Positions 2 to 12,246 of a stretch of 13,396 bases of DNA are shown in pieces (positions within the stretch are counted from its first letter, which is position 1; the number at the start of each line of letters is the position of its first letter). Made by a program: the position numbers and the translations under genes. Source of the stretch: an uncultured archaeon (GTDB taxonomy: Archaea; Iainarchaeota; Iainarchaeia; Iainarchaeales; 0-14-0-20-30-16); contig CAZQQS010000016.1 in NCBI GenBank assembly GCA_964595665.1, positions 1-13,396 on the forward strand. The letters run 5' to 3'. The notes under the pieces were generated by a model. It saw only the letters and a list, made by a program, of their open reading frames with translations. It was not told the DNA's origin and did not search any database.

Positions 2-577
2 AAACTTATTTTCAACATTGTAATTATTGCTTTAATAGCTATTTTGGCAATATTTACTTTAATTGTGTTTTTAGATAAAGATTATAAATATAGATTAGAT
101 TACGACAAAGTATTATTCTATTCAGATAATAATGTTTTTGATGACTTGTCTATACTTAAAGATGCAAATTTAGTTTTAATTGCTTTTGACAATACTCAAA
201 CAGCACATATTGCTAGTTTAATTCAATATATTCAAGTATTTACAATTTATAACAAACAAACTAATTTTTATATTATGTCAGAAAATGAATGTATTTTTTC
301 AGACACAAATACAAGAGCATATAACATAGTAAAAAAGGAAGAATGTGAATCTTTTTTAAATAATATAAATTATACAAAAATAATTCTTGGAAACATAAAT
401 ACAAAATTAACCAAAACTACAATTTATATTGAAAATAATACTTATAAAATAGTTTCAAATTCAAAAGAAAGTTTTAACGAATATTCTAAATTCTTAGAAA
501 TCTTATATCCTGATTATGCAGAAAGATTATTTGGTTTAGAAGAATTTACTTCAGATATTACTAAAAAAATTAGTTAG
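2..577 (+). CDS. Hypothetical membrane-anchored protein; 5' end probably lies outside the window
   Basis: The frame is open from nt 2 to TAG at 575-577. The track start at 44 is a TTG inside a hydrophobic helix (KLIFNIVIIALIAILAIFTLIVFL), so the real start is probably upstream of the window. I recognise no family motif in the soluble part. It is convergent with the last pilin-like gene and overlaps it by 8 nt. Confidence 0.5.
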   Translation, partial: KLIFNIVIIALIAILAIFTLIVFLDKDYKYRLDYDKVLFYSDNNVFDDLSILKDANLVLIAFDNTQTAHIASLIQYIQVFTIYNKQTNFYIMSENECIFSDTNTRAYNIVKKEECESFLNNINYTKIILGNINTKLTKTTIYIENNTYKIVSNSKESFNEYSKFLEILYPDYAERLFGLEEFTSDITKKIS

Positions 578-1241
578 ATAAAACATTTTGAACTTCTGTA
601 GTTAATACTTTACACTCTTCTAACATTTCTGTATTTAAATCGTGAGATAACCAACTACCTAAATAAATTGCACCATCTTCTTTTTTTGCCTCAGATGTAA
701 TAATATTATTAAACAATAAAAATTTTCCCTCAACAACAATTAAATCCAAAGAAACATTTTCCAAAAAAGAAATTAATTCGAAATCATTTGTACAATCATA
801 ATATTTTACTTCATCGTCAATTGTAATTTTTATTAATGTAAATAAATGCGTTAATATTTGCTCTTGATTTGCACTTGTCGTGTGATTTATGGATAAAAAA
901 TAATCTCTTTGATTATATGGTTTAAAAATATCTTCTAAAACTAAAAAAGCAGATATTTTTGTAAGTGTGTTTACATCGCCCCAACCATAATCTTCTTTTA
1001 TTAATGTTGAAATAGAATCTCTATAATTAGATTCATTAAAAGTATTTCCATCTCTCGAACCAGATGCACTAAAAAAAGATTTTAATGCAGAGTTATGATA
1101 ATTTTCTTTATACACTTGTTCGGCAGTAGATACAACATCATTACCATATGTTAAACCATAACTTACAATCAAAACAAATATTCCTGAAACTATTGTTAAG
1201 AATAATAATGCGTCTGTCGATGCAGCTTGTCCTTTCATCAT
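570..1241 (-). CDS. Class III signal peptide (archaeal type IV pilin-like) protein, 4th gene of the operon
   Basis: The N-terminus MMKG|QAASTDALLFLTIVSGIFVLIVSYGL has a short basic n-region and the KG|Q motif typical of archaeal prepilin peptidase substrates, followed by a ~20-aa hydrophobic helix. The ~190-aa ectodomain has 2 Cys. The start lies 1 nt after the upstream stop, with a GTGGT SD-like motif upstream. Confidence 0.7.
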   Translation of the reverse strand: MMKGQAASTDALLFLTIVSGIFVLIVSYGLTYGNDVVSTAEQVYKENYHNSALKSFFSASGSRDGNTFNESNYRDSISTLIKEDYGWGDVNTLTKISAFLVLEDIFKPYNQRDYFLSINHTTSANQEQILTHLFTLIKITIDDEVKYYDCTNDFELISFLENVSLDLIVVEGKFLLFNNIITSEAKKEDGAIYLGSWLSHDLNTEMLEECKVLTTEVQNVLSN

Positions 1242-1242
1242 A

Positions 1243-1815
1243 TTACCACGTCAAAACATATAAGTAAACTACTTTTGTACCATTAGGTGTGTATAAAGTT
1301 ACAGGAAAAATATATTGAAAATATTTTCTTGTTTTTACATATTCTATAAATTCAGAAAAATCACCATTATATTCTTTATTTAATTTATTTTCAACATTTC
1401 TACTAGCTCTAAAATAATATTCTTGATCTTCACAATCACAATTTCCTTCAGGAATACAAAAATCTTCTGAAAATATTATTTTATCATTACATTGCGAAAC
1501 AAATAACTCTTTATAATTTGTTAAACCCTCTAAATCAAATCCTTGCTCAGGAGACACCAATCCAAAAATATAATTTGATAAAATAACTAAATCTTTTGAT
1601 GTATTCATAAAATCTTCATAACTAGAAAAATTACTTTTTCCTAATGCTGATTTTGCAATAGTTAATGAATCTAAATAAGTATTCATTTGTGAATTTCTAT
1701 CATTAATAGTTGTGAAAACAAATGCCAACCCTGCAAAAAAAATCATTAATGCAAAGAATAAAGGAATTAAACTTGGCAAATCATCTCCAATTGAACCTAT
1801 AAAACCTTTTTTCAT
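1243..1815 (-). CDS. Class III signal peptide (pilin-like) protein, 3rd gene of the operon
   Basis: I prefer the ATG at 1815 (MKKG|FIGSIGDDLPSLIPLFFALMIFFAGLAFVF) over the track's TTG at 1845. It gives a KKG|F class III-like N-terminus and sits 2 nt after the upstream stop at 1818-1820. The mature part has 4 Cys, including a CDC cluster. Confidence 0.65.
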   Translation of the reverse strand: MKKGFIGSIGDDLPSLIPLFFALMIFFAGLAFVFTTINDRNSQMNTYLDSLTIAKSALGKSNFSSYEDFMNTSKDLVILSNYIFGLVSPEQGFDLEGLTNYKELFVSQCNDKIIFSEDFCIPEGNCDCEDQEYYFRASRNVENKLNKEYNGDFSEFIEYVKTRKYFQYIFPVTLYTPNGTKVVYLYVLTW

Positions 1816-1817
1816 TT

Positions 1818-2465
1818 TTATTCCCCAATAATTAATGGTACACAATAAAACTTTTCGCCTTGTGTACCAGATGTATTTAAACTTTTAGTTAAATCTGTTA
1901 ATTTTTCATAACAATCATTAAATCCAGATTCTCCAAAAAGAGGATCATAATCACAAGGTACAAAATAAATTTTTGTTTTTTGTTCATTATTTTTAGAATA
2001 TGAATTTTTAACCATATATAACACCCTTGTTTCTGTTGGATTAATATCTATTTCCTTAATTGTATTTGTGCTAGATTCATTATAAAAAACTAATTCTGCA
2101 TTTGTTTTAAAACTCTCAATAGCTATAGATTTCTTTGTACTTCTATTATAAACATCAAAAATAATAAATCTCGAATTATTAGATTCCTGAGTAGTAATTT
2201 TTATACCATAATAAATTGGCGTAAATGTTGCAGTATCACTAACTCCAAAAATATCAATATATTTTGGCAATAAAACTCTTTTAGATGCACATAAAGTATC
2301 TGATTCGGACATGTATTTTATTTGTTTGGCAATAATATTACTTATTTGTACTGTTTCATCTGCTAAAAAAACATCTTTTACACTTAATGAAAAAAATAAC
2401 AATATAGAGGCCATAGATATTGCAAAAATTAATATTCCTAATTTTGATAAAATAAAATCAATCAT
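1818..2465 (-). CDS. N-terminally anchored hypothetical protein (pilin-like accessory, non-canonical signal), 2nd gene of the operon
   Basis: The N-terminus MIDFILSKLGILIFAISMASILLFFSLSV is a single N-terminal helix with no adjacent K/R-G cleavage motif. Its ATG overlaps the upstream TGA (ATGA at 2462-2465), and an AGGTGA SD (complement of 2470-2475) lies inside the upstream gene. The protein has 4 Cys. Confidence 0.65.
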   Translation of the reverse strand: MIDFILSKLGILIFAISMASILLFFSLSVKDVFLADETVQISNIIAKQIKYMSESDTLCASKRVLLPKYIDIFGVSDTATFTPIYYGIKITTQESNNSRFIIFDVYNRSTKKSIAIESFKTNAELVFYNESSTNTIKEIDINPTETRVLYMVKNSYSKNNEQKTKIYFVPCDYDPLFGESGFNDCYEKLTDLTKSLNTSGTQGEKFYCVPLIIGE

Positions 2466-3016
2466 CTATTCACCTTATAAAAATATATTTTGGGAGTACC
2501 AGAAGCACTTCCAAAAGTATTGTTCTTTATAATATACATTCCATTTTTCAATTCTAAATCTGATTCTATAGTAGGCACAATAGAATATCCTTCTGGTGCT
2601 TCTGAAGATGTACCTATGTTTATCGATGGAGAAATATTCACACAATTAAATCTAGTTTGAGATGCTTTATCTTTATTATTTGTATATCTTAACAAATAAC
2701 AATTGGAACTCGAACCCGGACAATAAGATGAACACAATCTTGGATCTGAAACTTTCATTAATAAAATATTATAATCTGTGCCAAAACAATTTGGGGTTTG
2801 AACACTAAATTTTGTAGATATTAAAGGACTATTTGCCCCATCTTCAATATATCTCTTCAACTCTAATAAAGACAAATCTATTGTTTTAGAACATTTTGTA
2901 TTTGATAGGGAAGTCATTGCAAATGCTCCCGCAGTTAATACAAACCCTAAAAGTATAACTGATATTAACACTTCAAATACAGTATCGGATTGTCCTTTAT
3001 TATTAAATAATATCAT
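2462..3016 (-). CDS. Class III signal peptide (archaeal type IV pilin-like) protein, 1st gene of the operon
   Basis: The N-terminus MILFNNKG|QSDTVFEVLISVILLGFVLTAGAFAM has the KG|Q motif and an acidic residue a few positions into the mature N-terminus, followed by a hydrophobic helix. The ~150-aa ectodomain has 6 Cys. There is no SD, and a TATA-like box lies ~27 nt upstream, which suggests a leaderless transcript. Confidence 0.7.
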   Translation of the reverse strand: MILFNNKGQSDTVFEVLISVILLGFVLTAGAFAMTSLSNTKCSKTIDLSLLELKRYIEDGANSPLISTKFSVQTPNCFGTDYNILLMKVSDPRLCSSYCPGSSSNCYLLRYTNNKDKASQTRFNCVNISPSINIGTSSEAPEGYSIVPTIESDLELKNGMYIIKNNTFGSASGTPKIYFYKVNR

Positions 3017-3067: not shown

Positions 3068-5581
3068 ATGTTTGATATTTTTGATACTATTATAGAAGAT
3101 ACTCCCAAAACCAAAAAAAAACAACCTAAAAAGGACTTGGAAGAAACAACTATTGAAAATTCTGAAAACCCTATAATAGAAGATGAACAAAATACAAATG
3201 ATAATTCTGAAGAAATAAATACTATTGAAGAACCAGAATCTGAAGATCAAGAAGAAGAAATAATTGCAAAAAAAGGCAAAAATGAAAATGTAGAATTAAC
3301 CTTTTTAGAAAATCCTGAAACTGGTCACGCAATAATCGGAAGACAAAAATCTGTTTTTAAAAAATATGGTGAAGAAGGCACATTATACTTAGGAAAAGTA
3401 AATGAACCAAATTATCCTGAAAAAGAAGTTTATTTTGATTCTTTAAATCCACAAGTAGTTTTTATTTGTGGATCAAGAGGTTCTGGTAAATCTTACATGT
3501 TAGGGGTATTAGCTGAAGAATTAGCTATTAAAAATAAAAATGTTGGACAAATTGTTGTAGATCCAATAGGTGTATTTTGGTCTATGCGATACCCAAATAA
3601 AGAAAAAAGAGAAATGGAATTATTAGATGAATTTGGTTTGAATCCTATGGGCTTAGAAAATATAATGGTATTTGTGCCTGAAGGTGCATCTGAAAAAATT
3701 CCAAAAGAAACTTTTGATTCTACTTTTACATTACAACCTTCATTTTTAAATTCTGAAGATTGGGCATTAACATTTAGTATTGATAGATTCTCACCTTCTG
3801 GTTTATTATTAGAAAAAGTAATTAAAAAAGTTAAAGATGGATATAGATCTTTGAAAGGTTTAATATTCAAAGCAAAAGATGAAAATTATGATTTAAACGA
3901 TATTATTTTTTGTTTAGAAAATGATGCTGAATTAAATTCAAAAGAAAAAGGATATAGAAAGGAATCTATTAGAGCGTTAGTTTCAAGATTTGAAGCTGCA
4001 AAAACTTGGGGCATATTTTCTAAACGAGGAACTCCTTTAATGGAATTATCTGTTCCTGGACAATTAACAATTATTGATACAAGCTTTTTAGAAGAAAATG
4101 TTTCTGCATTGTTAGTTGGAATATTAGCAAGAAGAATATTAAATGCAAGAAAAATGAATTCGAGAAAAGAGGCAACAAAACAAATGGGATCAAATACAAA
4201 AATTGATTTGGAAAATGATATCCCTCCTACATGGTTATTTTTAGATGAGGCACACACTTTAATACCTTCTGGTTCATTAGCTACCCCAGCATCAAAAGCA
4301 ATTGTAGAATATGTAAAACAAGGACGAAAACCTGGTTGTTCATTAGTTGTAGCAACACAACAACCTTCAGCTATTGATACACGAGTATTATCACAGGTAG
4401 GAACATTAGCAACATATAAATTAATTTTTGATGATGATATTAAAGCTGTATTTAGAAGAATGCCCTCAATAGTTCCAAAAACATATAAAGAACCAGATTT
4501 TATTAAAAAATTAGGAATAGGAATTCCAATATTTGCTGATAGAGTAGAAACAACTTCAAGAGCATTTGTTTTAAATGTAAGACCAAGAATGTCTCAACAC
4601 GAAGGTAGAGAAATACAAACATCAGAAACATCACATAATTTTACAGATGAAGAAGCATTAGATGTAATGGTTGATATTACAAAAAGTAAATTAAAACAAT
4701 TTGAAGAATTAGATGAACATTCATTAAAAACATTATTAAAAATTATGAATATGAAATTTAAAAAAGATGTAAAATATAAAGAATATATTGCAAAACTTTT
4801 AGAAAACGAAATAGTAGAAGATAAAGGAAAATTCTTTATCCCGAAAGATGAAGATGATAGTGAATATTTTGAAGAAAAAATTAGTTATAGTGTTTTAGAT
4901 TCACAATATACACATGAAGAAATGACTGGTTCAGCAAAGCGAGCTACAGGTTGGCAAAATTTTAATGTAAATCATGTTTATAGACCGATATTTAAAGTTA
5001 ATTATAGAGTACATAATAACGATGGTAGTTTTGCAGAAAATACATGTTATATTGATGCAGTAAAAGTAGAATTCATACATTATATTGATGATGATTTTGT
5101 ATACTCTGAAGGTTTAAGCATATTAAGAACTTTAGAAGCAGATGATATTAGAATATTATTAGCTTTGCCTAAAAAAAGAGGATTTGATAACGAATATTTA
5201 AAAGACGCTTTTCCATATGGAGATGTAAAATTAAAAAATAGTATGGATAGGTTTATTAGTATGGGTATTTTGAGAAAAGAAAAAAGAAGCACAAAAAATG
5301 TTTTCTTTTTAATTAAGAATTTAGAATTACCTAAAAATCCAATACATAAAATGCTTTCTACTTTTGAAGATCTAAATTTAAGTCAAGAACCAGTAGACAA
5401 AGACAATATTTTGGATGCTAGATCTACATTTGAAACTGTTAGAAACGTTTTAGGAACTCTTTGGGAAACTATAAAAATAGATGAAATTGAAACTGTTCTA
5501 AAACCAGAATATTTAATAACTAATTTAGATACTAAAGAAACTGTTTTATTTGATGCATTTACTGGAAAGAAAATTGTTTAA
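3068..5581 (+). CDS. HerA/FtsK/VirB4-class P-loop ATPase (DUF87/COG0433-like) with acidic N-terminal tail and long C-terminal extension
   Basis: Walker A is VVFICGSRGSGKS (about 3470-3493). Walker B is WLFLDEAH (about 4232-4255). An ATQQPS motif (4352-4369) resembles the TQRPS motif of HerA/FtsK ATPases, and the core ends in RPRMSQHEGRE, like the R-x-S/T-x-H-G-G ending of DUF87 proteins. The first ~70 aa are D/E/N-rich and low complexity. Residues ~530-837 have no motif I can name, apart from two winged-helix-like stretches. Confidence 0.85.
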   Translation: MFDIFDTIIEDTPKTKKKQPKKDLEETTIENSENPIIEDEQNTNDNSEEINTIEEPESEDQEEEIIAKKGKNENVELTFLENPETGHAIIGRQKSVFKKYGEEGTLYLGKVNEPNYPEKEVYFDSLNPQVVFICGSRGSGKSYMLGVLAEELAIKNKNVGQIVVDPIGVFWSMRYPNKEKREMELLDEFGLNPMGLENIMVFVPEGASEKIPKETFDSTFTLQPSFLNSEDWALTFSIDRFSPSGLLLEKVIKKVKDGYRSLKGLIFKAKDENYDLNDIIFCLENDAELNSKEKGYRKESIRALVSRFEAAKTWGIFSKRGTPLMELSVPGQLTIIDTSFLEENVSALLVGILARRILNARKMNSRKEATKQMGSNTKIDLENDIPPTWLFLDEAHTLIPSGSLATPASKAIVEYVKQGRKPGCSLVVATQQPSAIDTRVLSQVGTLATYKLIFDDDIKAVFRRMPSIVPKTYKEPDFIKKLGIGIPIFADRVETTSRAFVLNVRPRMSQHEGREIQTSETSHNFTDEEALDVMVDITKSKLKQFEELDEHSLKTLLKIMNMKFKKDVKYKEYIAKLLENEIVEDKGKFFIPKDEDDSEYFEEKISYSVLDSQYTHEEMTGSAKRATGWQNFNVNHVYRPIFKVNYRVHNNDGSFAENTCYIDAVKVEFIHYIDDDFVYSEGLSILRTLEADDIRILLALPKKRGFDNEYLKDAFPYGDVKLKNSMDRFISMGILRKEKRSTKNVFFLIKNLELPKNPIHKMLSTFEDLNLSQEPVDKDNILDARSTFETVRNVLGTLWETIKIDEIETVLKPEYLITNLDTKETVLFDAFTGKKIV

Positions 5582-5582
5582 A

Positions 5583-6797
5583 TTATTTTAAATCCAAATC
5601 TTTAGCATAATAATTCTTTCCAAAAACAGGATTTTTAGATAAGAACATTTTGTAAATCAATAATATAAATAACAAAATTCCCAAACCAAATAATATTGCT
5701 ATTGTAGATTCATCAGACATTGAAAAAAATCCAGTTATTGGCATTAAAGAAAAACTACTATCTTTATTTTTATCTACTATATCTGATTCATTTAATACAA
5801 ATTCACTAAATAATTTTTTATCCAAATAAACTTGAATATTTTTATCCAAATTATCAAAACTTAATAAATAATCTTGAGTTGGCCTTAATAATAAATTATA
5901 AGTTTTATTTTGTGTAACTATGTTTATTTGAGAGATATTATTACCTGTATTTATTAAATTTAAAGTTCTATTTTCTTTATTAAATATAACCATAATATCA
6001 TTTACACTTTTTGTAAAATTTGCCGTACCTAAAGAATATTCTTTATTAGTAGAAACTTCATTTGCAAAGAAATAAATTCTTGTAAAATCTATATCATAGT
6101 TTGCATCAAAAGTAATATTTACTAAAACATTTTTTTCAGAATCTTTTTGCACTACTATATATTTATTATCAAACTCAACATGAACTTTATTCTTATCTTT
6201 TGAATCTATAAAATAATCTAAATAATAATTTGCACTTGAACCTGTATTAGTTAATGTAAAGATAATTTGTTTTTTATCCTCATCTTTAATTAAAAAATTC
6301 TTTTGCGAAGTATTTTTAATTATTAAATTAGGTAATTCATTAGTATATTTATCAGTTTCAAATAATATGTTAGATTTTTCTACAACATTTACTTTAATAA
6401 TTGTTTCTTTTACACTTTTTATTCCTTCATAATTTAGAACATTTTTTAATTTAATATAATATTCTCCTAATGGAATATCATTAGAAACAAAAACTCTTAA
6501 AGGTAATCTAAAATCATAAAAACTTTTTTGATCTTTAGCATAATAAACAGTTATGCCTTCTGGAGATAAAACCTCAAATGAAAAATCTAATTCTTTAGAC
6601 GTATTAAATTTATAATCTATAAAAACACTATAATTAGAACCTTGTTGTAAAGTTAATAAATTAGTTTCAGGAACAACACTATAATTCATATTGTATTCAT
6701 ATGAATTAACAAAGGCCAATGTCAATAATATGGCTACAACTAAAATTAAACCTTTTAAAAAACCTTTTTGACTATTAAATGAAATATCTCTAATCAT
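5583..6797 (-). CDS. Secreted/surface protein: N-terminal signal peptide, beta-rich Ig-like repeats, C-terminal TM anchor
   Basis: The N-terminus MIRDISFNSQKGFLKGLILVVAILLTLAFVNS looks like a signal peptide. The alternative ATG at 6812 adds only MHILY. The long Cys-free body is N/K/Y/V-rich with alternating beta-strand-like patterning and about ten N-x-S/T sequons. The C-terminal helix IAILFGLGILLFILLIYKMFL is followed by a basic tail. The TTTATAAA at 6820-6827 lies ~26 nt upstream of the 6797 ATG. Confidence 0.7.
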   Translation of the reverse strand: MIRDISFNSQKGFLKGLILVVAILLTLAFVNSYEYNMNYSVVPETNLLTLQQGSNYSVFIDYKFNTSKELDFSFEVLSPEGITVYYAKDQKSFYDFRLPLRVFVSNDIPLGEYYIKLKNVLNYEGIKSVKETIIKVNVVEKSNILFETDKYTNELPNLIIKNTSQKNFLIKDEDKKQIIFTLTNTGSSANYYLDYFIDSKDKNKVHVEFDNKYIVVQKDSEKNVLVNITFDANYDIDFTRIYFFANEVSTNKEYSLGTANFTKSVNDIMVIFNKENRTLNLINTGNNISQINIVTQNKTYNLLLRPTQDYLLSFDNLDKNIQVYLDKKLFSEFVLNESDIVDKNKDSSFSLMPITGFFSMSDESTIAILFGLGILLFILLIYKMFLSKNPVFGKNYYAKDLDLK

Positions 6798-6890
6798 ATA
6801 TAATATATGCATACAAACCTTTATAAATCATTATTGTTTAACTCATATAGTTAAAGTGAAGGTTTTTATTATTTCCTTATATATATAATT
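6798..6890. promoter_or_regulatory. Divergent promoter region between the surface protein and the TM-wHTH ORF
   Basis: The palindromic TATA-like octamer TTTATAAA at 6820-6827 serves the minus gene. The T/A-rich TTTTTATTA at ~6863-6871 lies ~24 nt upstream of the ATG at 6891. No SD motif precedes either start. Confidence 0.35.
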
Positions 6891-7958
6891 ATGAATTATA
6901 TTCAAAAAGCATTATTTTTAGGAGTTTTTTTATTAATCTTGCCCATAATATCAGCAAATAACGAAATTTATGTAGATATTCATCAAGATATTCCGTATAT
7001 AGATTATACTATTTATTATGATTCTAATTTCGAAATGTATTTGCCAGATTTTCAAGAATTAATTTATATTAAGGGTTTGCCAGAACTAAATTATGATATT
7101 ATTGATTCTAAATTATATGTTTATAGTGCTAAAGGAACTTTAGTATTGAAATACAAAGGAAATGAATTCTTAGAAAATAAAAATACTTTAGAAAAGACAT
7201 TAGATTTTGATATTTTAAATAATACAGTAATAATTGTAAAATCAGATAAAGAATTTTTAAAAATAAATTCAGATTACAATAAAGATAATGATAAACACGT
7301 ATATGAAACAAATGAAGACTTTGTATTATATTTGGTTTATGAAAATGTTTCAAAATATTTCAATTTAGTTTTAGGATTTGTAATAAGCATTATTTTAATA
7401 ATTATTATTTTCAGCATATATTTTTACTATAAAAAAGCTAATCAAAAAAATAATACTAGATTTTTAGATATTAATCAAAATAATATTTTAAATTTAGTTA
7501 AAAATAACTCTTTAACGCAACAAGAAGTTGCCAACAAATTAAATATTAAAAAAAGCCATATGAGTAAAATTCTAAATAAAATGGAAAGGCAAGATTTAAT
7601 TGAGAGAAAAAAAATTGGGAAAATAAATATTGCTAACAAAAATACAAAAATAAAAAGCCCAGGAATGAAGTATAAACACTATAGTCCAAAAGCAAAAATT
7701 ATTTTGTTAGATAACTTATTAAATATTAAAAATAATTATTCAAAAGATAAAACAATAATAATTACCAAACATAAAATTAAAACACCTTATAAAAACATCA
7801 TTTATCAAAACAACTCAAAATTAGCTAAAAATATTTTTGCATGGTTTAGATATGCAGATTCAAAAAAATTTAATTTAATAATTATTGAAAAACCCAGAAA
7901 CAAAAATTTAGGGGCAAGTATATTAAATAGATTAGAAAAGGCAGCTTCAAAAAGCTAA
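6891..7958 (+). CDS. Chimeric protein: signal peptide + ectodomain + TM helix + MarR/ArsR-like winged HTH + orphan Sua5 C-terminal domain
   Basis: Residues 1-23, MNYIQKALFLGVFLLILPIISAN, form a signal peptide or anchor. Residues 156-180, YFNLVLGFVISIILIIIIFSIYFYY followed by KKANQK, form a TM helix (nt 7356-7430). Residues ~193-247, NILNLVKNNSLTQQEVANKLNIKKSHMSKILNKMERQDLIERKKIGK, form a wHTH (nt ~7467-7631). Residues 255-355 begin SPGMKYKHYSP and end NLGASILNRLEKAA. These match the conserved linker and C-terminal motifs of the Sua5 domain of threonylcarbamoyl-AMP synthase (nt 7653-7955). No YrdC catalytic domain is present. Confidence 0.75.
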   Translation: MNYIQKALFLGVFLLILPIISANNEIYVDIHQDIPYIDYTIYYDSNFEMYLPDFQELIYIKGLPELNYDIIDSKLYVYSAKGTLVLKYKGNEFLENKNTLEKTLDFDILNNTVIIVKSDKEFLKINSDYNKDNDKHVYETNEDFVLYLVYENVSKYFNLVLGFVISIILIIIIFSIYFYYKKANQKNNTRFLDINQNNILNLVKNNSLTQQEVANKLNIKKSHMSKILNKMERQDLIERKKIGKINIANKNTKIKSPGMKYKHYSPKAKIILLDNLLNIKNNYSKDKTIIITKHKIKTPYKNIIYQNNSKLAKNIFAWFRYADSKKFNLIIIEKPRNKNLGASILNRLEKAASKS

Positions 7959-9046
7959 TTCCAAAATCCTTTCTTTTTCTTTTTTGATTTTGGTTCTTTA
8001 TTAAACGCTTTTAAAAATAATTCTTTTTGTTCTTTAGTTAATTCAGGAATATCTACTATTACCTTAACATATTGATTACCTAAAGAATCTTTCAAAGAGG
8101 GCATACCCAAACCTTTTAATTTAAAAGTGGTATGGCTTTGTGTACTAGAAGGTATTTTTAATTTCGCTTTTCCTTTAATTGTTTTTACTTCTATTTCATC
8201 ACCAAATAATGCTGTATTCAAATCAATATGTTCTGTTGAATATAAATCATAATTTTCTAATTTAAAATAAGGGTGAGATCGTAAACTTAATTTAATATAT
8301 AAATCTCCTTTATGTCTAGAATCTGAAAAGCCCTCACCTTGTAATCTTAATACAGTGCCATTAGAAACTCCTTTAGGGATTTTAACATTTAATATTTTCT
8401 TATCTTTAATAGTTCCTAAACCTTTACATATGGCACACTTTTTAGAAATGGTCTTTCCTGTGCCTTGACAATATTCACAAACAGTAACAGACATCATTCT
8501 ACCAAATAAACTGTCTACAACTCTTTTTAACTTACCAGAACCATTACATTTGCTACAAGTACTTAAATGTCCAGATTCTGCTCCCGTCCCTTTACAAGAT
8601 TTACAAACTTCTTGAGTTGGTATTTGAATACTTTTTTCTGCACCAAAAAAAGCATCTTCTAAATTTATTTCTAAATTATATTGTAAATCTGAAGCACTAG
8701 ATTTTCTTTGATTCCTACTACCAAAATCCTCATTATCAAAACCAAATCCAAAATTTTTGAAGATACTCTCAAAATCAAAATCAGAATTATTATTAGAATA
8801 TTGTTGATAATTATTATAATTTCCTTGTGCATAATCTGAGCCATAAGAATCATATTGTTTTCTTTTGCCAGAATCTTTTAAAGTTTCATATGCTTCATTA
8901 ATTTCTTTAAATTTTTCTTCATACTCTTTATTGCCAGGATTTTTATCAGGGTGGTATTTTTTAACAGAGTCCATATATGCTTTTTTAATTTCTTCTTGAC
9001 TCGAAGTTTTGCTCACGCCCAAAATATTATAATAATCTTTACTCAT
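7955..9046 (-). CDS. dnaJ: Molecular chaperone DnaJ (type I Hsp40)
   Basis: The J domain DYYNILGV...KKYHPDKNPG carries the HPD motif. There are four CxxCxGxG zinc-finger repeats (CKSCKGTG, CSKCNGSG, CEYCQGTG, CAICKGLG) and a C-terminal substrate-binding region. A GAGGG SD (complement of 9053-9057) lies upstream. Confidence 0.95.
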   Translation of the reverse strand: MSKDYYNILGVSKTSSQEEIKKAYMDSVKKYHPDKNPGNKEYEEKFKEINEAYETLKDSGKRKQYDSYGSDYAQGNYNNYQQYSNNNSDFDFESIFKNFGFGFDNEDFGSRNQRKSSASDLQYNLEINLEDAFFGAEKSIQIPTQEVCKSCKGTGAESGHLSTCSKCNGSGKLKRVVDSLFGRMMSVTVCEYCQGTGKTISKKCAICKGLGTIKDKKILNVKIPKGVSNGTVLRLQGEGFSDSRHKGDLYIKLSLRSHPYFKLENYDLYSTEHIDLNTALFGDEIEVKTIKGKAKLKIPSSTQSHTTFKLKGLGMPSLKDSLGNQYVKVIVDIPELTKEQKELFLKAFNKEPKSKKKKKGFWN

Positions 9047-9164
9047 AAAATACCCTCTAATGTTTTATGAGATCTGTTGGGAGTTTTAATTTCTAAAAAT
9101 CTCAACTGGCTCATTATATCACACAAAAAAAGATAAAAGAAAAAGGAAGAAAGAATTTATATTC

Positions 9165-11024
9165 TTACTTCTTTTTTGGTTCCTCAGTAAAATCTGCATC
9201 TACTGTTTTTTCTTCCGAATCAGTTTTTGGTTCTTCTGAATTTTCTTTTGGATTTTGAGATGTATTTTGTTGAGGTGCATTTCTTTGATAAATTGCAGAA
9301 CCGATTTCTTGCATAGTTTTAGACAAAGATTCTGTTTCTTGTTTTAATTTAGTTACATCTTCAGATTCTAAAACTTCTTTTGCAATTTTTAATGCATCTT
9401 CGATTTTTTTCTTTTCATCTTCTTGTAATTTATCTTGTAATTCACTCAAAGATTTCTCTGTAGTGTAGATCATAGTATCTAAAGCATTTCGCTCATCAAT
9501 TAATTCTTTTTTCTTCTTATCTTCTTCTTCATGTGCTTTAGCTTCTTTTACCATTCTATCAATTTCTTCATCAGATAATTTTGTTGACGCAGTAATAGTA
9601 ATCTTTTGTTCTTTATTTGTACCCAAATCTTTTGCACTTACTGTTAAAATACCATTAGCATCAATATCAAAAGTTACTTCAATTTGAGGTATTCCTCTTG
9701 GTGCTGGAGGTATTCCAGTTAAATTAAACATTCCTAAAGAAGTATTGTCTTGTGCCATTGGTCTTTCACCTTGCAAAACATTTATTGTTACAGCAGTTTG
9801 CATATCGGCAGCAGTAGAAAATATTTTTTTCTTTTTTACTGGAACAGTAGTATTCCTATCAATTAAAGGTGTTGAAACACTTCCCAAAGTTTCCAAACCC
9901 AAAGTTAATGGAGTTACATCCAATAAAACAATATCGTTAATATCTCCTGCTAAAATTGCACCTTGAATAGCCGCACCAACTGCAACACATTCCATAGGAT
10001 CTACACCGCGTTCAACTTGTTTTCCTAAAATATTTTCAACAAATTTTTGAACCATTGGCATTCTTGTTGGACCACCAACTAAAATTACTTTATCAACATT
10101 TTCTTTAGACAATTTTGCATCTTTTAAAGCTTGTTCTATTGGATGTTTACATTTATCTATAATTGGTTGAACAATTTTTTCCAATTCTGGTTTTGTTAAT
10201 TTCATTACTAAGTGTTTTGGGCCATTTGAATCAGCAGTAATATATGGCAAATTAATTTCTGTCTCACCAACTTTAGATAATTCTATTTTTGCTTTTTCAA
10301 CAGCTTCCATTACCCTTTGTGTTGCCATTTTATCTTTTTTCAAATCTAAATTTTCCATTTGTTTAAATCTTTCAACAACATAATCATACAATAAATTATC
10401 CATATCTGTTCCACCTAATTGAGTGTCCCCAGATGTAGATAATACAGTATAAACACCATCATTTAATTCCATGATAGTAACATCTAATGTTCCACCACCT
10501 AAATCAAATACTAATATTTTATGATTTCCTGTTTTACCCAAACCATATGCCATTGCAGCAGCTGTTGGTTCGTTAACTAATCTAACTACATCTAATCCAG
10601 CAATTTTACCTGCATCTTTAGTTGCAGTTCTTTGGTTATCATTAAAATATGCTGGAACTGTTATTACAGCTTTAGAAATCTTTTCTCCTAAAAAAGCTTC
10701 AGCATCAGATTTAATTTTTTGTAAAATAAATGATGATATTTGTTGTGGAGTATATTCTTTACCTTGTACTTTAAACTTTTCATTAGTACCCATTTTTCTT
10801 TTTGCTTTTATAATTGTTCCATCAATATTAGAAACATATTGTCTTTTTGCAGGTTCTCCAACTATTACTCCATCTTTAGTAAACGCAACAACACTTGGAA
10901 ATGCTTTACCATATAGTGAAGCACCTTCTGCACTAGGAATCATTGTAGGTGAACCACCCATCATAATACATGCTTGTGAATTTGAAGTTCCTAAATCAAT
11001 ACCTAAAATTTTTTCTTTACTCAT
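9165..11024 (-). CDS. dnaK: Molecular chaperone DnaK (Hsp70)
   Basis: Hsp70 signatures are present: [29 protein letters not shown], and a substrate-binding domain with a helical lid. A strong AAGGAGGA SD (complement of 11032-11039) lies inside the grpE 3' end, and only 2 nt separate the grpE stop from the dnaK ATG. Confidence 0.97.
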
Positions 11025-11026
11025 AT

Positions 11027-11545
11027 CTATTCCTCCTTAGAAATATTTTTTGCTAATTTAACTTTTGAATATCTTAATACTTTATCATTATACAAATAAC
11101 CTTTTTGTAGTTCATCTAAAATAATATTATCTTCTTTATCACTTTCTTCTTGTAATAAAACTTCGTGATAATTAGGATCAAATTTTTTATTTAAACAATC
11201 AATTCTTTTTACATTATATTTTTCAAAAACCTTTTCCATATTTTTGTAAATCATTGTTAATCCTTTTAAATCTTCAGGATTTTTTATTAAGGGCAAAGCT
11301 CTTTCAAAATCATCAAAAATATTTAATAAATCTAATAATAAATTCTTATTTGCACATTTGATTTCATTTTCTAATTGTTTAGAAACTTGTTTTTTATAAT
11401 TCTCAAAATCTGCTAATAAATATTTACTATGCTGCGAAATATCTTGGAGTTTTTGTTCTAATAATTGATTTTGTGTTTTCAATTGCTCTATCTCTTGCTC
11501 CAATATCTGCAATTCCTTTTGTTCCTTTACCAATTCTTTGTTCAA
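11027..11545 (-). CDS. grpE: Nucleotide exchange factor GrpE (start re-called to TTG at 11545)
   Basis: A coiled-coil N-terminus ([27 protein letters not shown]) is followed by the GrpE core ([12 protein letters not shown]...[15 protein letters not shown]...DPNYHEVL). The track's first 31 aa (RSINITCLIFINIYKSFALFIFYNFF...) look like translated promoter DNA. An AGGTGG SD (complement of 11552-11557) sits 6 nt upstream of the TTG at 11545. Confidence 0.88.
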
Positions 11546-11760
11546 TAAAAACCACCTAAAAAAGTTATAAAATATAAATAAAGCAAAGGATTTATAAATG
11601 TTTATGAAAATTAGACAAGTTATGTTTATACTTCTCAAATAATTCGATTTTGATTGTTAAAACCAAATTACTTTCAAGTAAGTTTTTGTATATTAAAATA
11701 ACAAAAGAAAAGTTTATATAATCTATTAAAATATTTATTTTATAGTTATGAGGTGATAAT
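11546..11760. promoter_or_regulatory. Divergent heat-shock promoter region (grpE-dnaK-dnaJ versus hsp20)
   Basis: TTTATAAA at 11591-11598 lies ~46-53 nt upstream of the grpE start and leaves room for an SD-bearing leader. TTTATATA at 11713-11720 lies upstream of hsp20. A GAGGTGA SD is at 11750-11756. The inverted repeat TTACTT-TC-AAGTAA at 11668-11681 lies between the two TATA boxes. Confidence 0.45.
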
Positions 11761-12246
11761 ATGATTGCAAAAAAGAAATCTAAGAAAATAATTTCAAAAC
11801 CTAAAACAAAACCAAATAAAAAATTAGAAATTATTGAAAATAAAAATCCCTTTAATAACTTAATTGATTTAGAGAAAAATTTTTTTGATAATGATTTAAT
11901 GAATTTATTTGGAAAAATAAATTTACCTAGTACAGATATAGAAAATAAAAAAGATACTATAGAATTAACTGCAGATTTACCAGGCGTAAATAAAAACGAA
12001 ATAAAGATTTGTGTAAATAAAGATTCTGTTGAAATCTCTGCAGAAAAGAAAGCTGAAAAAAACACGCAAGAGAAAAATTACTATAAACAAGAAAGAACAT
12101 ATTCTGGATATCATAGAGTTATATCTTTACCTGCATTAGTTGATCCAAACAAAACAAAATGCGATTTTGTTAATGGCACATTAAAAATCACAATAAAAAA
12201 GCTAAAAGACAAAATCGATAAACCAAAAATGATTACTTTGAAATAG
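11761..12246 (+). CDS. Small heat-shock protein, Hsp20/alpha-crystallin family
   Basis: The alpha-crystallin domain pattern is IELTADLPGVNKNEIKICVNKDSVEISAEKK...YSGYHRVISLPALVDPNKTKCDFVNGTLKITIKK. The N-terminal arm is lysine-rich. A GAGGTGA SD lies 4 nt upstream of the ATG. Confidence 0.9.
   Translation: MIAKKKSKKIISKPKTKPNKKLEIIENKNPFNNLIDLEKNFFDNDLMNLFGKINLPSTDIENKKDTIELTADLPGVNKNEIKICVNKDSVEISAEKKAEKNTQEKNYYKQERTYSGYHRVISLPALVDPNKTKCDFVNGTLKITIKKLKDKIDKPKMITLK

Follow-up and report, generated by a model that had tools for sequence, protein, structure and literature searches.

As far as is known, characterized motors of the HerA clade act on DNA, either in end resection together with NurA or in anti-virus defense. 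FtsK, a motor of the same superfamily, carries a gamma domain, which is a C-terminal winged helix that reads DNA, and to our knowledge FtsK is generally lacking in archaea. We analyzed a 13,396-nucleotide stretch of archaeal DNA, referred to here as the window, in which no tRNA or Rfam family was found and which contains the following ORF:

3068-5581, plus strand: complete ORF with an ATG start, encoding a HerA-clade ATPase of 837 amino acids whose head is acidic and whose tail has four domains.

The coordinates and the length are exactly those given in the preliminary description of this DNA. The ORF product is a conserved, previously unstudied archaeal motor protein of the HerA/FtsK superfamily, and it consists of an acidic disordered segment (residues 1-72), a HerA-clade P-loop core (residues 77-515) and a folded extension (residues 516-837). 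A transmembrane segment is absent, as had been claimed, the 19-residue Kyte-Doolittle mean peaking at 1.32. The architecture, which had been called unusual, is so relative to textbook HerA, but it is otherwise the standard layout of a large, unnamed and uncharacterized archaeal family.

The ATPase core matched DUF87 (PF01935) over residues 133-357 (E 1e-13, 52 bits versus a cut-off of 23). Foldseek searches returned 43 HerA chains and 7 TdpAB chains among the 50 best matches (E 3e-18 to 8e-13), and the best PDB matches were all HerA (E 3e-18 to 1e-12). Matches by sequence in the PDB were HerA proteins (8xau, 9c1m, 8wiv, 4d2i) and, as other ATPases, TdpA and the DnaI helicase loader. The core contains these elements:

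3296-4612, plus strand: short beta-rich N-subdomain (residues 77-125) followed by the HerA-type RecA-like ATPase core (residues 126-515), from DUF87 and Foldseek matches.
3470-3493, plus strand: Walker A, GSRGSGKS, with G135, G138, G140, K141 and S142 invariant.
4094-4177, plus strand: long helix with invariant R355, R356, R361, K362 and R366, then a low-confidence loop, from conservation and the AlphaFold2 (AF2) model.
4232-4249, plus strand: Walker B, WLFLDE, with D393 and E394 invariant.
4319-4369, plus strand: QGRKP (R420 invariant) to ATQQPS, aligned with EGRKYG...ASQRPS of HerA.
4580-4612, plus strand: near-invariant RPRMSQHEGRE (residues 505-515), closing the core, with a disordered linker next (residues 513-524).

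The catalytic motifs, namely Walker A, Walker B with its DE, the GRK arginine and the ATQQPS sensor strand, are intact and strongly conserved, the invariance of catalytic and basic residues being scored over 92 aligned homologues. Median identity in the core was 61.6% among the 120 homologues listed. The helix and loop at 4094-4177 constitute a candidate pore or DNA-contact element. Throughout the family, the TQRP motif of FtsK/HerA has Q in place of R, and the arrangement of the arginine finger is therefore uncertain. Six homologues carry a LAGLIDADG intein inside Walker A, at about residue 142; the P-loop is a typical site of intein insertion in essential, often DNA-metabolic, ATPases. The core ended where it had been placed, near RPRMSQHEGRE at about nucleotide 4610.

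The extension comprises 322 residues past the core, has a pLDDT of 89 when modeled by itself and is supported by two high-confidence AF2 models. Four domains follow one another in it:

4646-4837, plus strand: winged helix 1 (wHTH1), residues 527-590, H1-S1-H2-H3-S2-S3 topology, net acidic, sequence poorly conserved.
4883-5107, plus strand: PepSY-like domain 1, residues 606-680, ending CYIDAVKVEF, pLDDT >90.
5114-5311, plus strand: winged helix 2 (wHTH2) of TrmB/MarR/Lrs14 type, residues 683-748, net charge +6.
5348-5578, plus strand: PepSY-like domain 2, residues 761-837, ending FDAFTGKKIV.

Both segments that the preliminary description had singled out as winged-helix-like (527-590 and 683-748) show this topology. 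Its account of the protein had missed the two PepSY-like alpha/beta domains that alternate with the winged helices, as well as a conserved motif in the N-terminal head. Foldseek of the whole-extension model returned winged-helix matches only (probability 1.0, ~2 A over ~68 residues, to regulators of the TrmB/MarR/Lrs14 kind, which of the two winged helices aligns being unspecified), and no whole-tail fold match was obtained by Foldseek against PDB and BFVD or by a PDB-sequence profile search, which gave single winged helices only. wHTH2 is backed by homology. The extension profile matched Lrs14, MecI, MarR and ArsR regulators in the PDB, with wHTH2 aligning to TrmB/MarR/Lrs14 regulators such as ST1889 (2D1H) and AbfR2 (6CMV) at E 8e-5 to 1e-3, and homologues matched Pfam HTH_27 (32.3 bits, cut-off 22.2), HTH_IclR (27.2, cut-off 22) and TrmB (25.6, cut-off 25.6), the query itself being sub-threshold. 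The basic recognition helix and wing of these regulators are kept; K/R are enriched across phyla in the wing and where the recognition helix begins, and the median net charge in the family is +3, but wHTH2 is present as a single copy in a motor protein and is without the dimerization helices of the regulators. Judged from its sequence, wHTH2 is of the DNA-binding-regulator type. wHTH1 is a weak DNA-binding candidate because it is net acidic; winged helices also act as protein-interaction modules.

An hhalign comparison (probability 94%, E 1e-7) shows that the two PepSY-like domains are homologues of one another. The query gave no match to Pfam PepSY (PF03413), and 10 of 26 family tails matched it; on the domain aligned to residues 761-837, homologues P0067, P0095, P0064 and P0078 scored 24.9-34.4 bits versus a threshold of 24. 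The tail shares the vDa.TGk ending with PepSY proteins such as YpeB and the M4 propeptides, but its PepSY-like domains differ from these in lying in the cytoplasm, between winged helices and as part of an ATPase. We know of no DNA binding by the PepSY fold. The proposed DNA-binding C-terminus is partly supported, with wHTH2 as a candidate DNA-binding domain but with about half of the tail PepSY-like; a match of the tail to a non-DNA-binding domain, which the preliminary description had named as evidence against its reading, was therefore in part found. PepSY is described as a protein-protein, protease-inhibitor module (Pfam description; PMC6393860), and a DPANN-specific "double PepSY-like" cluster, cls.004634, whose description resembles the two-PepSY tail, has been reported (Makarova et al. 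2019, PMC6393860).

The extension is kept in orthologues, all 113 full-length homologues occupying it in the multiple alignment. Among the 120 homologues listed, the core was covered in all 120, residues 641-740 in 111 and residues 741-837 in 89. A mis-fused ORF was ruled out, because every full-length orthologue keeps the extension. The family includes more than 590 proteins of Iainarchaeota (DPANN), and orthologues with 35-50% core identity and the same tail occur in Theionarchaea, Methanofastidiosa, Hadarchaeota, Hodarchaeaceae and Thermoplasmatota, so that it spans DPANN, several euryarchaeal lineages and one Asgard lineage. The protein was present in 272 species-representative genomes; the 80 of these that were kept have a single locus apiece, and the gene is phylum-wide and apparently single-copy. 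No paper describing this architecture, a motor combined with regulator-type winged helices and PepSY-like domains, was found in the literature searched. Apparent stand-alone tail proteins of ~330 amino acids were likely gene fragments: one clusters with a 763-residue protein, and those checked lie on contigs of 1.6-2.3 kb.

The N-terminal head comprises two features:

3068-3295, plus strand: head, residues 1-76, acidic and intrinsically disordered, with a net charge of -16.
3068-3094, plus strand: MFDIFDTII, a short linear motif at the N-terminus, with D-[ILP]-F-[DE]-E-[VLI]-[FL] as the consensus in the family.

The head is rich in E, I, K, N, D and T, and the disorder attributed to it earlier agrees with an AF2 pLDDT below 50 over residues 1-72. 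Across the family it is 6-312 residues long, with 30% D/E and a median charge of -17, and outside the N-terminal motif no sequence conservation was found across the family. The strict motif pattern occurred in 87 of 119 homologues versus 0.9 expected from shuffled tails, the others carrying mostly near-variants. The acidic head is specific to Iainarchaeota.

Clustering of the neighbors in 79 loci showed that the recurrent ones represent housekeeping synteny (glmS, glmM, an acetyltransferase, HAD-CofD, dUTPase and L44e). The gene stands solitary among housekeeping genes, which include glmS, glmM, tRNA synthetases, L44e, DNA ligase, Alba, Hjc and Lhr, and no gene partner pointing to a specific DNA process was conserved across the 79 loci. 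A 99-amino-acid gene downstream on the same strand recurred at 14 loci, and a DUF3566 membrane protein was encoded at 8; both are missing from the window.

We consider it possible, if just short of probable, that the gene product is a housekeeping motor, probably hexameric and driven by ATP, which translocates nucleic acid, most likely dsDNA, and contacts DNA through wHTH2, in a layout resembling that of FtsK-gamma. The DNA-pump role is inferred from the fold, the conserved catalytic and basic residues, the type of winged helix and the housekeeping behavior of the gene. Threaded through the ring, DNA would pass the invariant basic residues of the helix and loop (R355, R356, R361, K362, R366), and the basic, regulator-type wHTH2 would hold or recognize DNA at the mouth of the ring, much as the gamma winged helix is placed in FtsK. 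The two PepSY-like domains could serve as scaffolds for protein-protein contacts, placing the winged helices or joining neighboring subunits, and the N-terminal motif, on its flexible acidic tether, could dock the motor onto a partner; alternatively, it might fold back as a DNA mimic and auto-inhibit the motor. Such a motor may act in chromosome segregation or resolution, in repair or in another DNA transaction. Counting against a translocase are the PepSY-like half of the tail, the acidic wHTH1, the use of winged helices as protein-interaction modules in other proteins, the Q in the TQRP position, the lack of a conserved gene partner and a distant paralogue with the same tail inside an arvABC (vesicle-formation) operon. 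The paralogue was found at one Woesearchaeota locus; tblastn found no arv genes in the other fetched loci, and the arvABC link was dropped.

FtsK/SpoIIIE proteins belong to the same superfamily and show an analogous order, in which a long and flexible linker at the N-terminus precedes the ring motor and a winged helix lies at the C-terminus. The present protein differs from them in having no N-terminal membrane domain and in possessing two winged helices interleaved with PepSY-like domains. The FtsK_SpoIIIE model (PF01580) gave no query match at E 0.1 or better, homologues scoring 16.9-21.4 bits versus 24, and no FtsK-gamma match was listed, the C-terminal winged helix being of TrmB/MarR type instead. 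Another relative is YjgR/DUF853 (HerA_C, PF05872), to which homologues have precomputed or weak matches, some being named "DUF853 family protein" by NCBI; the query, however, reached 15 bits versus 22, and the tail and head are not in the PF05872 model.

If the family does consist of DNA translocases, it would represent a new class of chromosomal motor for archaeal cell biology and a candidate for segregation, resolution or DNA handling in reduced-genome DPANN archaea. A more specific proposal, which we regard as improbable, is that the family is the missing counterpart of FtsK/SpoIIIE in FtsZ-dividing archaea. It would then be a soluble HerA-clade dsDNA pump which is loaded directionally on chromosomal motifs by its tail winged helix and which, in Iainarchaeota, is recruited by the N-terminal peptide to the division or segregation machinery, clearing or resolving chromosomes at division. 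The conserved peptide offers a direct handle for finding partners, and in-vitro tests are feasible despite the uncultured hosts because the protein is soluble and confidently modeled.

The ring might instead act on something other than DNA, remodeling proteins or RNA or working as an ATP-dependent switch, in which case the winged helices and PepSY-like domains would bind partners or inhibit; a protease, a vesicle factor or a division factor may be named as example partners. The interpretation of PepSY domains as protein-protein (protease-inhibitor) modules (PMC6393860), the acidic wHTH1, the docking-type motif conserved on a flexible head and the presence of Cdc48 near the gene at two loci (L002 and L083) are consistent with this reading. 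It is nevertheless rather unlikely, as the top structural matches are all DNA-associated complexes, characterized members of the clade work, as far as is known, on DNA, the basic pattern that DNA-binding regulators show in the recognition helix and wing is retained in wHTH2, the Iainarchaeota loci have no arv genes nearby and no protease neighbor is conserved.

We also weighed whether the protein is the repair HerA of this lineage, resecting the ends of double-strand breaks together with NurA, Mre11 and Rad50, whose genes would lie elsewhere, its tail replacing lost partner contacts. HerA (4D2I, 9X1M, 8XAU, 7WRW) is the closest solved relative by fold and by sequence, sharing the DUF87 RecA-like core, Walker A and B, the GRK...(S/T)Q(R/Q)PS region and, ahead of Walker B, a long helix that leads into a basic loop. 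Moreover, an SMC_N-type ABC ATPase (~995 amino acids) with a CPIC motif in the middle of its coiled coil, which resembles the Rad50 hook, is encoded on the same strand 4-10 genes further downstream at 17 of the 79 loci, and a Metallophos protein lies ~9 kb from the gene in L002. Identity to HerA, however, is 13-19%, and the scores fall far below the equivalog cut-offs of the NCBIfam repair models NF040819 and NF040937 (37.4 bits versus 970 and 35 bits versus 800). No HAS-barrel match in Pfam was found for the query, the window proteins or seven homologues, and only ~50 structured residues, forming four short strands as judged from secondary structure, precede the P-loop strand. The 322-residue tail and the acidic head are additions, canonical HerA being without a wHTH/PepSY tail. 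No NurA match was found among the window proteins, in line with the absence of nurA claimed earlier, and no conserved neighbor cluster recognizable as NurA or Mre11, nor any effector partner, was found in the 79 loci (representatives of some clusters were scanned against Pfam). These results set the protein apart from canonical repair HerA, as had been proposed, and make a lineage-specific repair HerA improbable as well.

In a further candidate role, the ATPase would serve a surface-filament, secretion or DNA-transfer apparatus as its cytoplasmic, VirB4/CedB-like motor and work with the operon upstream of the gene:

570-3016, minus strand: four small proteins encoded in a divergent operon, all with a single hydrophobic helix at the N-terminus (context only).

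The start codons of the operon and the ATPase gene are 51 bp apart, and the four proteins have class-III-like signals, three of them a K-G class-III (prepilin-like) signal. The same arrangement was seen in the close relatives L002, L004 and L008 (65-73% identical), and a pilin-like cluster lies 3-10 kb upstream of the gene in the complete Iainarchaeum genome. Pilin-like genes, however, are abundant in DPANN genomes generally. Scoring of class-III-signal neighbors in the 79 loci showed that the adjacency is confined to the clade of the window and is absent from most of these loci; it is also absent from the loci of Theionarchaea, Hadarchaeota, Woesearchaeota and others, and the pilin link was dropped as functional evidence. 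The ATPase has no transmembrane segment, VirB4 (TIGR00929) scored 19.5 bits versus a cut-off of 643, no PilB/PilC, CedA or VirB6-type matches were obtained, and no VirB4/CedB/TraG-type channel components adjoin the gene, whose neighbors in this respect are pilin-like proteins only, and only in close relatives. A filament or transfer motor is accordingly even more doubtful than a repair HerA.

An anti-virus defense ATPase of HerA type (Sir2-HerA, DUF4297-HerA or MADS-like) is highly improbable: PADLOC HerA models reached 72 bits and mad8 reached 60 bits, and a core-only relative sits beside a BREX ATPase on a Haloplanus plasmid, but the PADLOC matches are limited to the generic motor region, the NCBIfam antiphage HerA models (NF042943/4) scored 41-42 bits versus cut-offs of 800-850, no effector is adjacent, and a phylum-wide, apparently single-copy, conserved gene with housekeeping neighbors is the opposite of the patchy, island-borne pattern of defense genes. 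Searches of mobile elements by tblastn yielded only an 80-residue match in phages and only core-only or weak relatives on plasmids. The Haloplanus relative, of 389 amino acids and 31.6% identity, lies in an island that holds, besides the BREX ATPase, a PD-(D/E)XK nuclease/helicase pair.

The HerA-like ATPase is encoded by an ATG-initiated ORF of 837 aa at 3068-5581 (+) in the window, which is strongly AT-rich (20-31% GC). The preliminary description of this protein was accurate. An acidic disordered N-terminal tail had been proposed, and residues 1-76 (the head), in which E, I, K, N, D and T are abundant, carry a net charge of -16, with residues 1-72 lacking predicted structure in the AlphaFold2 model (pLDDT <50). 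The core (residues 77-515) ends at RPRMSQHEGRE (residues 505-515, nt 4580-4612), where its end had been placed, and the extension said to comprise about 300 aa contains 322 residues (516-837). The reported absence of a TM segment and of nurA was confirmed, as no hydrophobic stretch was found in the whole ATPase and no NurA-like protein among the proteins of the window. AlphaFold2 modeling yielded a mean pLDDT of 84.5 for the whole ATPase (92-sequence alignment) and 89.0 for the tail alone, and the winged-helix-like segments noticed in the extension corresponded to two winged helices in a tail modeled as follows:

residues 527-590: wHTH1, a winged helix (H1-S1-H2-H3-S2-S3)
residues 606-680: alpha/beta domain 1 (PepSY-like)
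residues 683-748: wHTH2, the second winged helix
residues 761-837: alpha/beta domain 2 (PepSY-like)

The extension was occupied in all 113 of 113 full-length homologues in the multiple alignment and was confidently folded, which excluded the alternative of a mis-fused ORF. The core aligned in 120/120 listed homologues, with a median identity of 61.6%; residues 641-740 aligned in 111 of these and residues 741-837 in 89, with an identity of ~27-31% over the aligned tail residues, and residues 531-640 gave BLAST alignments in close relatives only. Foldseek comparison of the tail with the PDB returned winged-helix proteins only (ST1889, TubR, AbfR2, MarR and ArsR; probability ~1.0, rmsd ~2 A over ~68 residues, E 0.05-0.3), the output not specifying whether wHTH1 or wHTH2 was aligned. 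No match to the whole tail module was found by Foldseek in the PDB, and the BFVD search gave the same picture. The tail profile matched Lrs14-like, MecI, MarR and ArsR regulators in the PDB (E 8e-5 to 1e-3), every one of them on wHTH2. Pfam scanning of 26 family tails detected TrmB in 13 and PepSY in 10; in single homologues, wHTH2 scored above or at the gathering score for HTH_27 (32.3/22.2), HTH_IclR (27.2/22) and TrmB (25.6/25.6), and the last tail domain scored 24.9-34.4 bits for PepSY (gathering score 24). Since the two alpha/beta domains are mutually homologous (hhalign probability 94%, E 1e-7) and the tail halves align over 95 columns (probability 93%), sequence comparison suggests that a wHTH-PepSY unit underwent an ancient duplication. 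The winged helices differ in charge: wHTH2 is basic (+6 in the query, family median +3) and wHTH1 is acidic (-3 and -2, respectively). Across phyla, wHTH2 has kept K/R where the recognition helix starts and in the wing, together with the regulator winged-helix core L..L...KGL.

Pfam DUF87, the HerA central domain, was detected at residues 133-357 (E 1e-13). Strong PDB sequence matches of the core were exclusively to HerA proteins, with weaker ones to TdpA and a DnaI-type helicase loader, and the best 50 structural matches consisted of 43 HerA and 7 TdpAB chains (E 3e-18 to 8e-13, identity 13-19%), which belong to repair HerA or to defence complexes. Over 92 sequences, invariant residues were found in Walker A (G135, G138, G140, K141, S142), in Walker B (D393, E394), at R420 of QGRKPG, at T430, Q431, Q432 and P433, in a cluster of basic residues on the long helix preceding Walker B (R355, R356, R361, K362, R366) and at the majority of positions of RPRMSQHEGRE. 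An intein of ~430 aa with LAGLIDADG endonuclease domain matches interrupts Walker A at about query residue 142 (GSGK|S) in six homologues (P0006, P0012, P0072, P0113, P0116 and P0120).

These results suggest, as the best-supported reading, that the ATPase has a housekeeping role as a DNA-acting ring translocase of the HerA clade; ring formation, DNA binding and translocation are what we infer from the HerA fold, whose catalytic and basic residues are intact and strongly conserved, the regulator-type basic winged helix of the tail, the phylum-wide and apparently single-copy conservation, and the intein in the P-loop. One rival is a repair HerA whose NurA is encoded elsewhere, as the HerA matches of the core would allow; however, the NCBIfam equivalog for repair HerA was missed widely (37 vs cut-off 970), as were those for antiphage HerA (42 vs 800) and VirB4 (19.5 vs 643). 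No HAS-barrel match was found in the query or in seven homologues, and the AlphaFold2 model places only ~50 structured residues (four short strands and one helix) upstream of the P-loop strand. The order of flexible N-terminal tether, motor and C-terminal winged helix is analogous to that of FtsK. The ATPase did not qualify as an FtsK on the features tested. Throughout the query family, Q takes the place of R in the FtsK/HerA motif TQRP.

The head varies in length across the family (6-312 aa, median 160) and is not alignable, with 30% D/E and a median charge of -17. Its first residues form a conserved motif, D-[ILP]-F-[DE]-E-[VLI]-[FL], which is short and is represented in the query by MFDIFDTII. 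The strict pattern occurred in 87/119 homologues vs 0.9 expected from shuffled tails, and most homologues missed by it contained near-variants. The head has the appearance of a flexible acidic tether bearing a docking peptide. Orthologues beyond Iainarchaeota start right at the core without a head, indicating that it is a lineage-specific addition.

A search of 5.8 billion proteins gave 596 homologues among the candidates scored, the named ones all from Diapherotrites/Iainarchaeota (DPANN), with lengths of 814-1100 aa except for intein-containing forms. The tail profile, run against 1.84 billion representatives, matched 358 proteins at E <=1e-3, which comprised the Iainarchaeota family; clear orthologues with the same tail and 35-50% core identity from Theionarchaea, Hadarchaeota and Thermoplasmatota, the last (P0177, P0185, P0279) being ~1200 aa long with DUF835 inserted between core and tail; and, at greater distance, compact DUF87 ATPases of 510-730 aa that share this tail, one of them from Woesearchaeota. 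The profile built from the orthologues outside Iainarchaeota matched 3,985 proteins at E <=1e-20, with named members from Methanofastidiosa, Theionarchaea, one Methanomicrobia MAG, Hadarchaeota and Hodarchaeaceae (Asgard); all of these are annotated as DUF87 or ATP-binding protein and nothing more. The family is large, and its importance to the hosts is clear. As a motor of the HerA/FtsK superfamily it carries an undescribed double wHTH-PepSY tail, to which Iainarchaeota add a motif-tipped acidic head; our literature search found no paper on this architecture. Makarova et al. 2019 (PMC6393860) listed a DPANN-specific 'double PepSY-like' cluster, which may or may not be related to the query tail. 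With the function that we infer, the family could bear on chromosome handling in FtsK-less archaea.

The genomic neighbourhood was examined for a partner of the ATPase. Its start codon lies 51 bp from that of a divergent group:

570-3016 (-): four consecutive small ORFs of 223, 200, 215 and 184 aa, divergent from the ATPase

Each product has a single N-terminal hydrophobic helix, three of the four carry a K-G/[QF] class-III (prepilin-like) signal, and none matched Pfam, NCBIfam or PADLOC. A motor for this pilin-like operon is an unlikely rival reading of the ATPase. The divergent layout recurs in three loci of relatives 65-73% identical (L002, L004, L008); it is missing from most of the 79 loci analysed, where neighbour clustering recovered housekeeping synteny only (glmS, glmM, acetyltransferase, HAD-CofD, dUTPase, L44e). 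An SMC_N ABC ATPase of ~995 aa was encoded on the same strand 4-10 genes downstream in 17/79 loci (including L028, L033, L039, L055, L062, L072 and L077), with a Rad50-hook-like CPIC motif in mid coiled-coil and no adjoining Mre11. In 14 Iainarchaeota loci, a 99-aa protein with weak TBP/DUF3378-like matches is encoded directly downstream on the same strand (e.g. L065 4436-4738 and L035 12772-13119), and a 115-aa DUF3566-like membrane protein is often encoded after it; neither gene is in the window. In other phyla the ATPase gene is again solitary, amid informational and metabolic genes (including tRNA synthetases, a Top6B_C-like protein, Alba, DNA ligase, Hjc, Lhr, RNase J, Cdc48).

The strongest rival to a DNA translocase is a non-DNA remodeller or switch, against which the basic wHTH2 counts. 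On a Woesearchaeota contig (L085 8001-12520), the same PepSY-wHTH-PepSY tail occurs in a distant DUF87 ATPase whose gene precedes, on one strand, those for a 324-aa Cys-rich membrane protein, an ArvA/OapA-type small GTPase, OapB and OapC. The last three correspond to the Haloferax vesicle-formation operon, and the arv/Oap genes have been linked to the formation of vesicles (PMC10927574); this gene association was found in no other fetched locus. A defence system is the weakest rival. A 389-aa core-only relative on the Haloplanus sp. HW8-1 plasmid NZ_CP098519.1 (L092 5820-8128; 31.6% identity over residues 119-513, overlapping a 380-aa hypothetical gene) shares its island with a BREX ATPase and a PD-(D/E)XK nuclease/helicase pair, so this core may have given rise to it as a defence-type offshoot.

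As for the other genes of the window, the ORF at 5583-6812 (-), which adjoins the ATPase in close relatives only, encodes a protein of 409 aa that has a pilin-like hydrophobic helix at its N-terminus and a TM anchor at its C-terminus; it had no family match and resembles surface or adhesin-type proteins. In the 355-aa ORF at 6891-7958 (+), a signal/TM region occurs together with a MarR-type wHTH (about 193-250) and, at 241-353, a Sua5 C-terminal domain (E 1e-22), with no YrdC domain; this ORF is an odd fusion or gene remnant, and its L002 counterpart is 266 aa, with no Sua5_C match on record. The region 7955-12246 is an ordinary chaperone cluster, with dnaJ-dnaK-grpE on the minus strand followed by ORF 11761-12246 (+), which looks like a candidate small heat-shock protein; the synteny of dnaJ and dnaK extends to L002.
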